Below, piece by piece: positions 5,006 to 23,399 of a DNA stretch of 34,233 bases. The translations under genes and the position numbers were made by a program. Origin of the DNA: a bacterium (GTDB lineage: Bacteria; Electryoneota; Electryoneia; Electryoneales; Electryoneaceae). Under the pieces are notes generated by a model. The model had not been told where the DNA came from and searched no databases. It was given only the letters and a program-made list of their open reading frames with translations. Location: NCBI GenBank assembly GCA_043801585.1, contig JAZDLX010000013.1:1-34233 (forward strand), written 5' to 3'. Numbering within the stretch: the first letter of the stretch is position 1; each line of letters begins with the position of its first letter.

Positions 5006-5569
5006 TTACTTCCCTGTGGGTTGCGCGGCAGGTGTTACTTTCGCCGGTTCTGCCGCAGGTTTGGTTATCTCTTCCGCCGGAGCCACTTCCGTCACGGGTT
5101 TGGTTTTAGAAGTGTCTTTCGGCGCTGCCTGCATAGTGGCTGCCGGTGCCGTGGCTGCCGGTGCCGTGGCTGCCGGTGCCGTGGCTGCCGGTGCCGTGGC
5201 TGCCGGTGCTGTAGCCGCCGGTGCCGTGGCCGCCGGTGCCGTGGCTGCCGGTGCCGTGGCTGCCGGTGCCGTGGCTGCCGGTGCCGTAGCCGCCGGTGCC
5301 GTGGCCGCTGGTGCCGTGGCTGCTGGTACCGTGGCCGCTGGTGCCGCTTGCATCATGGCCTTAGCCTTGGAAGTGTCTTTTGGCGCTGTTTCCATTTTAG
5401 GCGCTTCTTTGGCCGGTGCCGCTTCCATCGTGGCCGGGGGTTGCACGACCTTTTGAACCGGTGGTGGAGCCTGCTTCTCCACCGTCTTCTTCTGGATCGC
5501 TGCGCATCCCACAAACAGGACCATTGCGAAGAACGCCATCACAAGCATCACTTTGCCCAATCCGCGCAT
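5006..5569 (-). CDS. Ala/Pro/Thr-rich low-complexity lipoprotein with (APAAT)14
   Basis: GGGAGG RBS, signal peptide with lipobox FVGC, downstream terminator, repeat variation mostly at synonymous positions in this frame. Confidence 0.85.
   Translation of the reverse strand: MRGLGKVMLVMAFFAMVLFVGCAAIQKKTVEKQAPPPVQKVVQPPATMEAAPAKEAPKMETAPKDTSKAKAMMQAAPAATVPAATAPAATAPAATAPAATAPAATAPAATAPAATAPAATAPAATAPAATAPAATAPAATAPAATMQAAPKDTSKTKPVTEVAPAEEITKPAAEPAKVTPAAQPTGK
5136..5345. repeat. Coding tandem repeat, 14 x 15 bp
   Basis: Unit GTGGCTGCCGGTGCC and variants; encodes APAAT (one VPAAT). Confidence 0.95.
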
Positions 5570-8078: not shown

Positions 8079-8630
8079 TCAGGAAAGAGTGGGGTTCCGA
8101 GGGGTGCCGTCTCGCTTCAGTGCGAATTGGGAATTGTACTCGGTTTTGATCGCGCGCGGTGTGCGAGTCTCAACGATCTCGACAAGTTCCTGAACTTGTG
8201 TGGAGCTGTAGAGGCCGCCGGAGATGGAGATTTTTCCCGTCTGAAAGACAAGTCTGATCCTTGAGGATCTCCTCTGCCTGCTTTTCATGTTTCGTGCCGC
8301 GCGGGAAACCTTGACCTCTCGCAGTTCATCGAAGGGATACCAGATCGGCGTGGAGCCGGATCGGGCGATGCCGATTCCGGATGGGCTGTAATAGATCTTT
8401 TTCAGAACCAGCTCGCCGAGAATGTACAGAATCATCAGGGCGATGACGCCCATGGCAACCAGCATCGGCCAGTCGAGCGGACTGGAGATATATTTTTGGT
8501 AATCGATGTTTTTCAACGGACCCTGCATGATGAACAGGATGACCGCGAACACGGGTGCCACCAGTTTCGCAAACTGGGGCTTCAAACGTTTTGCGTCCGG
8601 GTGCAGGGGAAACGGACCTATTCCATCCAT
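8079..8630 (-). CDS. Hypothetical membrane protein (2 TM helices plus basic C-terminal domain)
   Basis: GGAGG RBS, 183 aa, two hydrophobic segments. Confidence 0.75.
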   Translation of the reverse strand: MDGIGPFPLHPDAKRLKPQFAKLVAPVFAVILFIMQGPLKNIDYQKYISSPLDWPMLVAMGVIALMILYILGELVLKKIYYSPSGIGIARSGSTPIWYPFDELREVKVSRAARNMKSRQRRSSRIRLVFQTGKISISGGLYSSTQVQELVEIVETRTPRAIKTEYNSQFALKRDGTPRNPTLS

Positions 8631-8709
8631 GGCATGCCTCCATTGGCCTTTTCATGAAACTACATGAGGTTCCATTTCTCTGCAAAGGATAATAGTGAAG
8701 GATGGTATC

Positions 8710-8744
8710 AAAAAGAACCCGTGACGTTTGGCGACGTCACGGGT
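8710..8744 (-). terminator. Intrinsic terminator
   Basis: Perfect 11-bp stem ACCCGTGACGT/ACGTCACGGGT then TCTTTTT on minus strand. Confidence 0.85.
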
Positions 8745-8830
8745 GGGCGAGCGAGGGAGGCAAGCCGTGAATGCCCCCCAATGCTTGTTGCGCTGGGTGT
8801 GTCCGGTGATTCAAGCCGAACAACACCCAC
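8710..8830 (-). ncRNA. Candidate sigma-54-dependent small RNA (~120 nt)
   Basis: Lies between a consensus -24/-12 promoter and a terminator; three hairpins; no RBS-led ORF. Confidence 0.6.
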
Positions 8831-8840
8831 CAAGTAGATG

Positions 8841-8957
8841 AGCAACCTTGATGCCAGAACTGTAACTCATTGAAAGTATGAGCACTAGACTTTTCCGGGG
8901 TCGGCGGAAAAATCCCGCATGTCCAGAAATGAACGGGAGATGTACCGGAAGAGAACA
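8841..8957 (-). promoter_or_regulatory. Sigma-54 promoter with IHF-like site and tandem activator sites
   Basis: CTGGCATCAAGGTTGCT (8857-8841); TTTCAATGAGTTA just upstream; TGT-N10-ACG (8920-8935) and TGT-N11-ACA (8941-8957). Confidence 0.8.
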
Positions 8958-9019
8958 CACGGGATGACCATTTTGCTGCGTAGAAAAGCTGATTCCCCCG
9001 ATGTTAGCAGCCTTGAGGA

Positions 9020-10417
9020 TTAATGCCACCCGATGAAGAAGGGTGGGACCAGCAGGGCGAAACCGACGCCGATCAGGATGACCTGCAACGGCAGTTGCCA
9101 GCGTGCCCAGCGGTCCCAGGGAACCTTCGCCACCGAAAGAATCCCCATCAGCACCGCGCTGGTCGGGATGATCAGGTTGGTGAATCCGTCGCCGAACTGG
9201 TAGGCGAGAACCGCCCACTGGCGGCTGACGCCGAGCAGGTCCGAGAGCGGGGCCATCACCGGCATTGTCAGCGCCGCCTGACCGCTTCCACTGGGGACAA
9301 AGAAGTTGATCACCGTCTGCACGAGGAACATCGCCCAACTCGAGAAGATTGGATGCAGTCCGCCGATCAGGCCCGAAAGTCCGGCGAGCACGGTGTCGAT
9401 GATCCTGCCGTCTCGGGCGATGATCAGGATACCACGGGCAAGGGCGATGATCAGCGCCGTGCCGACGAGTTCACGGGCTCCTCTGAAAAACGACTGTGAA
9501 ATTTCGTTGCCTTTCAGTCCACCGACGATTCCCACCGCGATGCCCGTGCCGAAAAACAGCGCGGCGATCTCCTCGATGTACCAGCTGAACTTGAGCACAC
9601 CGACCACCAGCAGCACCATCGCCAGCCCGAAAACGGCCAGGGTAAAACGGTGGCGGAGGTCGAGCCGGGCGCCAAGATGAGCCTCCTCCTGTTCGTGTTC
9701 AGCGCGGATCTCCTGGTCCATCTCGAAGGTTGGCGAAAGTTCAGGACGAGCCTTGACACGAGCCGCATGACGGAGGACATACACCGTGGCTACAGTTGTG
9801 ACCACAAACCAGACAACGATCCGGTACTGAAGCCCGGAGAACAGCGGGACATCGGCGATGCCCTGAGCGATGCCCACGGTGAACGGGTTGAAGAATGCCC
9901 CGGCGAATCCTGCGCCCGATCCGACAAAAGGAATTGCCACGCCCGTGATCGTGTCATATCCGAGTCGGATGGCGAGTGGAATGAAGAGCAAAACAAAAGG
10001 AATGGTTTCCTCGGCCATTCCGAACACCGCGCCGCCGAGGGAGAACAGGACCATGAACAGTGGAATCAGGGCGAGGCGGACGAAATAGCTGTGGTCGTGG
10101 GCGTGCACCAGCGATCGGATGGCGGCGTCGATGGCGCCGGTTCTCTGCAGGACGAAAAATGCACCGCCGACGATCAACACAAAGCCGATGATTTCCGCCG
10201 CGTCGACAAATCCTTTGATCGGCGCAAGGAGAATTCCACTGATCCCCTGCGGATTGCTGGCGATACGGTGAAAGGAACCGGCAACAACCATCTCGCGGCC
10301 ATCCACAACGGCACGGTCGAACTCTCCGCCGGGAATGATCCAGGTGAGGATTGCGGTAATCGCCAGCAGGCCGATCATCAACAGGGCGGTGTCGATCGCT
10401 TTCATCTTCGTCTTCAT
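9020..10417 (-). CDS. YfcC-family (ion transporter superfamily) transporter
   Basis: ATG 10417 with GGAGA RBS; many TM helices; motifs LTWIIPGGEF, GMAEETIPF, NPFTVGIAQGIA, PSGSGQA, AYQFGDGFTN. Confidence 0.9.
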   Translation of the reverse strand: MKTKMKAIDTALLMIGLLAITAILTWIIPGGEFDRAVVDGREMVVAGSFHRIASNPQGISGILLAPIKGFVDAAEIIGFVLIVGGAFFVLQRTGAIDAAIRSLVHAHDHSYFVRLALIPLFMVLFSLGGAVFGMAEETIPFVLLFIPLAIRLGYDTITGVAIPFVGSGAGFAGAFFNPFTVGIAQGIADVPLFSGLQYRIVVWFVVTTVATVYVLRHAARVKARPELSPTFEMDQEIRAEHEQEEAHLGARLDLRHRFTLAVFGLAMVLLVVGVLKFSWYIEEIAALFFGTGIAVGIVGGLKGNEISQSFFRGARELVGTALIIALARGILIIARDGRIIDTVLAGLSGLIGGLHPIFSSWAMFLVQTVINFFVPSGSGQAALTMPVMAPLSDLLGVSRQWAVLAYQFGDGFTNLIIPTSAVLMGILSVAKVPWDRWARWQLPLQVILIGVGFALLVPPFFIGWH

Positions 10418-23282: not shown

Positions 23283-23399
23283 GGCAACAGGCATGCCAAT
23301 CCGCACTTTAGTGGAAGTGTTGAATAAATAAATAGATGCGACGAAACAAACGCGGCGTTTTGGAGAACGATTCGTTCAACGATTGAACAAAACGTTCAA
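23283..23399 (-). promoter_or_regulatory. Sigma-54 promoter and upstream activator site of the cus operon
   Basis: TTGGCATGCCTGTTGCC (23299-23283); AT-rich spacer; CGTTCAACGATTGAACA (23373-23389). Confidence 0.8.

Follow-up and report, generated by a model that had tools for sequence, protein, structure and literature searches.

The window, that is, the whole stretch of 34,233 nucleotides analysed here, corresponds to contig C21 of the source genome (G000). The element under study occupies a gap between two minus-strand genes, yfcC (stop at 9020), whose product belongs to the YfcC/DcuC family, and a gene for a 183-aa protein (start at 8630). We refer to the predicted RNA of this gap (window 8709-8830, minus strand) as the 8830 sRNA, and to its two candidate target genes, both on contig C72 of G000, as gene A (C72:14653, 699 aa) and gene B (C72:5688, 814 aa). 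G001 denotes a second genome of the same genus, the only one in the comparison set. The host family probably coincides with that of Candidatus Electryonea clarkiae (Electryoneota, FCB group), judging by a protein of the same-family genome G002 that shares its N-terminus with P0013, a protein attributed to that organism. The features are as follows.

8957-8941 and 8935-8920, minus strand: tandem activator-like sites, TGTTC-N7-GTACA and CGTTC-N6-GGACA, about -127 to -90 from the predicted start
8875-8863, minus strand: IHF-like site recognised by its sequence, with a putative role in bending
8857-8841, minus strand: sigma-54 -24/-12 promoter with correct GG-N10-GC spacing; predicted +1 at about 8830
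8709-8830, minus strand: predicted small RNA of about 122 nt, drawn from the fold and the G001 homologue, without an Rfam match
8828-8795, minus strand: hairpin 1 at the RNA 5' end; its 3' arm includes the 5' half of seed A
8804-8783, minus strand: seed A, 22 nt, antisense to C72:14664-14685 (gene A nt +12 to +33, codons 4-11)
8779-8755, minus strand: hairpin 2 with a 9-nt loop (8771-8763); its 3' arm masks the anti-Shine-Dalgarno element
8771-8746, minus strand: seed B, 26 nt, antisense to C72:5668-5692 (-20 to +5; gene B Shine-Dalgarno and GTG)
8710-8744 overall, minus strand: intrinsic terminator with an 11-bp stem (8744-8717) and a U tail
8657-8685, minus strand: probable sigma-70-type promoter of the 183-aa gene, TTGCAG-N17-TAGTTT, outside the 8830 sRNA

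An earlier note on this DNA, made from the letters alone, had placed the tandem palindromic sites, the IHF-like site and the -24/-12 promoter on the minus strand ahead of two hairpins and an 11-bp terminator with a U tail, and all of these lie where it put them. The IHF consensus is WATCAA-N4-TTR, from which the site at 8875-8863 departs by one mismatch. The genome encodes rpoN, four HU/IHF-family genes and, among the 22 matches listed, 17 enhancer-binding-protein matches at E below 1e-20. G000 and G001 each have a single copy of the tandem-site pattern and the 14 other family genomes have none (control 0); no further sigma-54 promoter among the 50 examined carries it. On the other side of the RNA, the TTGCAG and TAGTTT hexamers at 8657-8685 are unchanged in G001 and the first half of their spacer differs; this is probably a separate sigma-70-type promoter for the 183-aa gene, with a weak match at -10. 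The product of that gene (window 8079-8630, minus strand; also L181:714-1376) is a membrane protein with no Pfam or NCBIfam match, and the gene sits before a conserved 439-aa gene in G000, G001 and a further relative, G008.

Several other sigma-54-like sites were noted during this survey. Four more promoters of this kind in G000, at C84:61033 (-), C105:10428 (+), C113:54630 (-) and C201:2239 (-), precede structured stretches of 94-224 nt that end in terminator-like hairpins and show no standout start-region match. Two facing sigma-54-like promoters at C78:147974 (+) and 148001 (-) overlap within about 30 nt, and a canonical one at C113:71237 (+) lies 98 nt upstream of a gene that we take, from its N-terminal sequence, to be dnaK-like. 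Within the window, a sigma-54 promoter at 23298 (-) carries a related palindromic site at -91 and leads into an operon resembling outer-membrane efflux, membrane-fusion and heavy-metal RND genes (23223-16968); a gene pair for a sensor kinase and a sigma-54 response regulator (26573-23396) lies immediately before it.

We then asked what kind of transcript the promoter would produce. The 8830 sRNA folds at -58.6 kcal/mol (z = -4.99), a stability that none of 200 shuffles equalled. With the terminator removed the fold keeps z = -3.2 in G000 (0 of 300 shuffles) and z = -1.3 in G001 (34 of 300). Covariance-model search against Rfam returned no match at gathering score anywhere in the window, and one chance match (E 3.9) within 8600-9050, outside the 8830 sRNA; the models for Qrr, GlmY/GlmZ, Pxr, CrcZ and FopS were among those that did not match the RNA, whose family the earlier note had likewise failed to recognise. 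BLAST found no paralogue in G000. A reading frame of 40 codons, from GTG 8830 to TGA 8708, crosses the RNA; it has no ribosome-binding site and is broken by indels in G001. A literature search, chiefly of openly searchable papers, returned nothing on this RNA or on sRNAs of Electryoneota. The locus thus shows the traits of the sRNA class, namely its own promoter and terminator, a non-coding body and conserved structure. To judge from sequence, the enhancer-to-terminator unit is an independently promoted, sigma-54-type, terminated small RNA that has not been described, and we consider it very probable that the 8830 sRNA is transcribed as such.

Conservation was assessed in several sets of genomes. 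G001 alone of 40 relatives holds the unit (73% identity over 324 nt by BLAST), with the RNA homologue at C93:2875-3033 and synteny with the 183-aa gene kept. Identity between the two genomes is high in the enhancer (33/37), the promoter (15/17, GG and GC invariant), the IHF-like site (10/13), seed A (20/22), seed B (22/26) and the terminator (31/36); it is lower in the spacer (25/44), behind the promoter (4/10), in loop 1 (5/9) and behind the terminator (11/24). For comparison, six orthologous genes agree at 37-57% of their four-fold synonymous sites. As read from these alignments, the conservation of the unit exceeds chance and follows function, with motifs kept and spacers and synonymous sites diverged. 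The earlier note had made its proposal depend on promoter and stems being conserved in relatives, and enhancer, promoter, three hairpins and terminator are all kept in G001. Among 33 base pairs there are two two-sided changes, three one-sided changes and two broken pairs, leaving 97% of cells paired; the compensatory changes are C-G to U-A in hairpin 2 and A-U to G-C in the terminator. With two copies only, 129 of 500 shuffles reach the observed covariation.

Outside the genus no homologue was found by BLAST (41 genomes), covariance model (61 genomes and 16 family genomes) or enhancer pattern (16 genomes), the model recovering the 8830 sRNA in 2 of 61 genomes and 2 of 16 family genomes. Twelve other loci upstream of the orthologue of the 439-aa gene, three of which end at contig edges, contain no homologue, and G008 has the orthologue of the 183-aa gene with no such element in front. 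A 16-nt pattern occurred in at least 120 metagenome stretches, none of which, among the loci compared, matched the 8830 sRNA, and viral contigs gave no matches. From these counts, and from the G008 gene that stands without the element, the RNA appears to be genus-specific in this sample.

Self-BLAST of G000 revealed two short matches on C72, each antisense to a gene start. Seed A forms an unbroken 22-bp helix with gene A (-46.6 kcal/mol). Seed B forms 23-24 bp with gene B, interrupted by a single bulge and a single mismatch, and the anti-Shine-Dalgarno element UGCCUCCCU makes up the middle of this seed. The loop of hairpin 2 (8771-8763) is complementary to AGCC-GUG-AA at the gene B start and costs 0.1 kcal/mol to open; after both RNAs have been opened, the toehold yields a net -9.5 and the full duplex a net -20.0 kcal/mol. 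For seed A, entered through the inter-hairpin linker, the toehold and full-duplex values are -4.7 and -13.0 kcal/mol. Co-folding reduced the unpaired fraction of gene B positions -14 to +5 from 0.29 to 0.06, and the same region of gene A was little changed (0.56 to 0.50). Since the gene A site lies downstream of the ribosome site and accessibility there barely moves, the sign of the seed A effect is less sure than that of seed B. Opening of seed B did not ease opening of seed A, which makes it probable that each site is served by its own sRNA molecule. An extension of the seed A duplex by the 5' arm of the RNA was rejected, as the RNA's own species was not preferred. RNA and targets reside on separate contigs in both genomes (C21 and C72 in G000, C93 and C21 in G001), and the RNA is not encoded opposite its targets as a cis-antisense RNA would be.

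Pairing energies are kept in G001 (-45.2 and -44.6). The seed A changes there convert a C-G and an A-U pair into wobble pairs, one at the cost of a hairpin pair. Random placement of equally many changes spares pairing as well in 18% of cases for seed A and 4% for seed B, and the sparing of pairing is therefore weak support. Neither target site varies between the two species, and a compensatory change between RNA and target is accordingly not seen. Codons 3-10 of gene A are the same in both species, against 32% codon identity for the gene, and the signal peptide diverges right after them; other cassette genes likewise have conserved 5' ends, the TonB receptor sharing 11 identical codons. Among P0121, P0123, P0003 and P0004, proteins from closer relatives, P0121 departs from gene A at codon 10.

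To place these matches in a genome-wide setting, target scans were run on our own gene calls (2611 genes in G000). When the whole RNA body was compared with 2540 start regions, an unbiased ranking, gene A came first and gene B third; when opening costs were included (2499 start regions), gene B came first and gene A third. The second-ranked candidate, C108:16856, was rejected as its pairing is lost in G001 (-36.3 to -15.4). In a scan for unbroken helices over both strands of G000, seed A gave the best non-self helix, the next (-41.1) lying deep within a coding region, and the 16-bp core of seed B ranked 17th. Seed windows, chosen after the BLAST matches, were ranked against 2557 start regions: gene A was first for seed A (-44.3, next -31.4) and gene B first for seed B (-45.6, next -37.4). 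None of 27 shuffled seeds did as well, one seed B shuffle coming within 0.3 kcal/mol (-45.3). Of 23 other stretches behind sigma-54-like promoters, none matched the seed A helix (best -41.7) and none had two of its top four matches on one contig. By simple arithmetic, the chance that the best match of the second seed falls in the same cassette is about 5/2556. 19-mers shared by intergenic DNA and the opening 45 nt of a gene numbered 23, of which 20 lay within 140 nt of a contig end; those away from contig ends are that of the 8830 sRNA and two others. In G001, BLAST of its RNA against its own genome returned the gene B site as best non-self match, and the gene A site tied for third among 11. 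Searches for analogous antisense RNAs gave nothing convincing at gene B starts in G011, G013 (one query), G014, G015 and G008, nor at gene A starts in G008, G005 and G012; for the gene A starts and for gene B in G008 the best non-orthologue had E about 1. In genus g11, too, a long antisense match at the orthologous starts was not seen.

The 8830 sRNA therefore displays the conserved, accessible complementarity to distant translation starts that characterises trans-encoded sRNAs, and we judge the mRNAs of genes A and B to be its likely partners. The earlier note had proposed a trans-acting RNA pairing through UGCCUCCCU with the ribosome sites before the 8630 gene and a lipoprotein gene at 5569. 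Its choice of class survives, as does the anti-Shine-Dalgarno element, which acts in the prediction as part of seed B on gene B; its named targets do not, and it missed the second seed (8804-8783, for gene A). At the 8630 and 5569 sites the 7-nt matches do exist, at chance level, and these 7-bp pairings are net unfavourable (+0.9 and +3.4 kcal/mol) because the element is locked in hairpin 2 and costs 8.6 kcal/mol to open over 7 nt. The 8630 gene ranks 786 of 2540 in the unbiased scan and 244 of 2499 with accessibility. The 5569 gene (window 5006-5569, minus strand), which is absent from the automatic gene calls and was tested by hand, encodes a 187-aa probable lipoprotein with a long AAPAT repeat run and no Pfam match.

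The targets belong to a cassette of six co-oriented genes on C72 that encode a TonB-dependent receptor, the gene B product, a PorV/PorQ protein, a 1479-aa T9SS cargo protein, a TPR protein and the gene A product. Gene A encodes a signal-peptide protein with a T9SS C-terminal domain, and gene B a signal-peptide protein with a weak PorZ/PorU-like tail. Within the family, 14 of 16 genomes carry gene B and 15 of 16 a homologue of gene A; relatives of gene B also occur in KSB1 and Marinimicrobia. In ribosomal-type codon bias the receptor ranks 123 and gene A 126 of 2121, a hint that both proteins are abundant. AlphaFold models of the two cargo proteins (pLDDT 89.7 and 80.2) consist of Ig/FN3-like sandwiches; their fold matches are partial (beta-sandwich/FN3, PorZ/PorU, GH2 accessory domain; TM by query at most 0.24) and their Atlas matches are unnamed T9SS-tail clusters. 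Neither set of matches includes a clear catalytic one or supports a nuclease or glycosidase identity. An 18-bp hairpin with no U tail (G000:C72:14592-14631, L029) stands directly upstream of the gene A ribosome site, and a hairpin of different sequence occupies the same place in G001 (C21, upstream of 28997, L214); the element could serve in processing or stabilisation and so set the stoichiometry of the cassette. Both genomes also have a gene A paralogue (G001:C20:15409-17367, L228; G000:C83:5125-5991, L229, ending at a contig edge). The N-terminus of the G001 paralogue differs and would not be matched by seed A, so the 8830 sRNA may discriminate between paralogues.

RNA chaperones were searched for as well. 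Hfq (PF17209) was found in none of the 16 family genomes, 12 of which are at least 90% complete (control positive in 5 of 14); ProQ was found in neither genus genome, and RRM proteins (PF00076) in neither (92% and 94% complete; control positive in Bacteroides). We favour, as reasonably likely, a reading in which a sigma-54-driven 122-nt sRNA represses genes A and B in trans without Hfq by means of two long seeds. Upon a signal, an enhancer-binding protein on the tandem sites would fire sigma-54. The open loop of hairpin 2 would pair with the gene B GTG start, and the helix would grow by displacing the 5' arm of hairpin 2 until it covered the Shine-Dalgarno sequence (23-24 bp) and blocked ribosome loading. 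On gene A, the inter-hairpin linker would seed on codons 4-7 and extend into hairpin 1 to 22 bp, a duplex of a size suited to RNase III that would overlap the five-codon window. The two cargo proteins would then drop, the receptor and PorV cistrons not being directly bound. Each hairpin would keep part of its seed out of reach until it met the matching toehold, giving specificity without a chaperone; affinity as well as specificity would come from the length and self-masking of the seeds. A bolder version is tentative: a natural two-key toehold switch, recent, genus-specific and built from antisense copies of its targets, whereby a chaperone-free RNA may shut two cassette subunits and leave receptor and PorV on.

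Other explanations were weighed against repression in trans. The same RNA and partners could be retained with the seed A duplex, at least, guiding cleavage, processing or stabilisation of the cassette message, so that subunit ratios would be reset and the 699-aa protein perhaps even raised. Seed A does bind within the coding region, its 22-bp duplex suits RNase III, which G000 encodes, and the hairpins before the gene A ribosome site in both genomes are what such processing would lead one to expect. We nonetheless hold it unlikely, as seed B covers the gene B Shine-Dalgarno and start codon outright, no release of a ribosome site is predicted, and the seed A duplex overlaps the five-codon window of gene A, where pairing blocks initiation according to one study (PMC7534054). 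It is quite improbable that the RNA represses broadly through its anti-Shine-Dalgarno element, or is itself sponged by the cassette message, with the two best matches only part of its pairing. Seed B includes a general anti-Shine-Dalgarno element, net energies of -11 to -13 kcal/mol occur at several unrelated start regions, and 11 bp match over the likely ribosome site of another TonB receptor gene, C181:23739; against this, the element is locked in hairpin 2 at the cost given above, the best alternative target is not conserved in G001, and C181:23739 ranks 70 of 2499.

That the matches are relics of an origin by copying of two gene starts, in an RNA with another function such as protein binding or with none, would accord with its restriction to one genus, with the downstream gene standing alone in G008 and with the lack of long antisense matches at orthologous starts in G008, G005, G012 and genus g11. 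Yet synonymous sites are about half diverged and the seeds have kept 20/22 and 22/26 positions with pairing intact, and a relic would hardly be expected to expose a loop complementary to precisely a start codon, which makes this account very unlikely. A role in cis, as an attenuating 5' leader of the 183-aa gene or as a yfcC 3' UTR and terminator, is suggested by the position between two same-strand genes and by the synteny kept in G001; the interval from yfcC to the sigma-54 promoter showed no strong terminator, so yfcC read-through probably stops at the same terminator. However, in the ligand-free read-through fold the terminator stem has probability 1.0, no terminator-disrupting alternative structure of the riboswitch or attenuator type appeared, and pairing of the anti-Shine-Dalgarno element with the 8630 site reaches 0.06. 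The 183-aa gene also seems to own a conserved promoter and occurs without the element in G008, and a cis role leaves the two distant matches unexplained; we regard it as highly improbable. A leaderless 40-residue peptide from GTG 8830 would use a frame that is open in G000, and is next to impossible given that the frame has no ribosome-binding site and that the G001 indels contradict it.

The predicted repression by the 8830 sRNA was compared with known systems. RybB/MicA-type sRNAs are sigma-E- and Hfq-dependent with short seeds; the likeness to them is that of an alternative-sigma RNA on the early coding region of an envelope-protein mRNA. GlmY/GlmZ act as decoy or activator tied to glmS and RapZ, whereas the 8830 sRNA has no Rfam match to them and its best targets are not glmS. 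The earlier note had likened the architecture to that of Qrr and GlmY, which is borne out for the promoter layout and fails for the rest, Hfq being found in none of the family genomes. In the accessible part of the source, Vibrio Qrr1-5 are driven by an enhancer-binding protein and sigma-54, are multi-hairpin RNAs with a terminator, and pair with targets through the first two stem-loops (PMC3730234). The sigma-54 promoter with upstream activator sites is shared at the sequence level; relative to Qrr as described there, the 8830 sRNA has far longer predicted pairing, no Hfq found in its family, no Rfam match and no quorum-sensing context in view. Another RpoN-dependent pairing RNA is C. jejuni FlmE, as the available text reports (PMC11187230).

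The closest functional parallels come from Bacteroides. GibS of Bacteroides thetaiotaomicron resembles the 8830 sRNA as an intergenic trans-acting sRNA with two seeds in an Hfq-less FCB-group host; it is described as binding carbohydrate-related genes in their translation-initiation regions through two distinct seeds, and as a ligand of the RRM protein RbpB (PMC11697453, PMC13750123). Compared with that description, the 8830 sRNA differs in its sigma-54 promoter and enhancer, in having no Rfam match and no RRM family match found in the genus, and in seeds of 22-26 nt, partly hidden in hairpins, each aimed at a separate cistron of one cassette. The FopS family is portrayed, in the same partly available sources, as 14 paralogues with one single-stranded 5' seed and housekeeping-sigma promoters that bind the susC receptor leader (PMC11697453, PMC13750123), with its structure deposited in Rfam (PMC11697453). 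Post-transcriptional repression of a TonB-dependent import locus would be common to both, being predicted for the 8830 sRNA, which is single-copy and matches two internal cargo cistrons rather than the receptor. The R1 seed shared by GibS and FopS and the FopS structure, a single-stranded 5' part plus terminator, are not found in its three-hairpin fold, which has no Rfam match, and an RRM partner such as RbpB is not detected, PF00076 having been found in neither genus genome. DonS of Bacteroides fragilis, reported in the available text to be encoded opposite its target and to repress a TonB-linked utilisation locus free of Hfq (PMC13750123), shares the long complementarity; the 8830 sRNA differs in lying on another contig and using two short antisense blocks. 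For Rfp18 of Flavobacterium psychrophilum, a T9SS host, stem-loop pairing with secreted-protease and adhesin mRNAs is predicted (PMC9723704). A structured sRNA, secreted-protein mRNAs and a T9SS-bearing bacterium are common to the two; Rfp18, in the part of the source available, uses one pairing region for many targets and no sigma-54 link is seen. By analogy with these systems, the 8830 sRNA would work like GibS and FopS, appears to be promoted like Qrr, and belongs to none of these families.

The prediction supplies a concrete, testable RNA-target circuit in an uncultured lineage of the FCB group in which Hfq, ProQ and RRM chaperones were not detected, and it suggests how specificity may be achieved free of chaperones, through long seeds that hairpins conceal and toeholds release. 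Of the six genes in a cassette common in the family, two stand out as candidates for regulation; the prediction ties them to a sigma-54 signal and offers a lead on the role of unannotated T9SS cargo proteins. If the two-key reading is true, it would amount to signal-driven remodelling of a surface import machine and would provide the first sRNA-target pair for Electryoneota.
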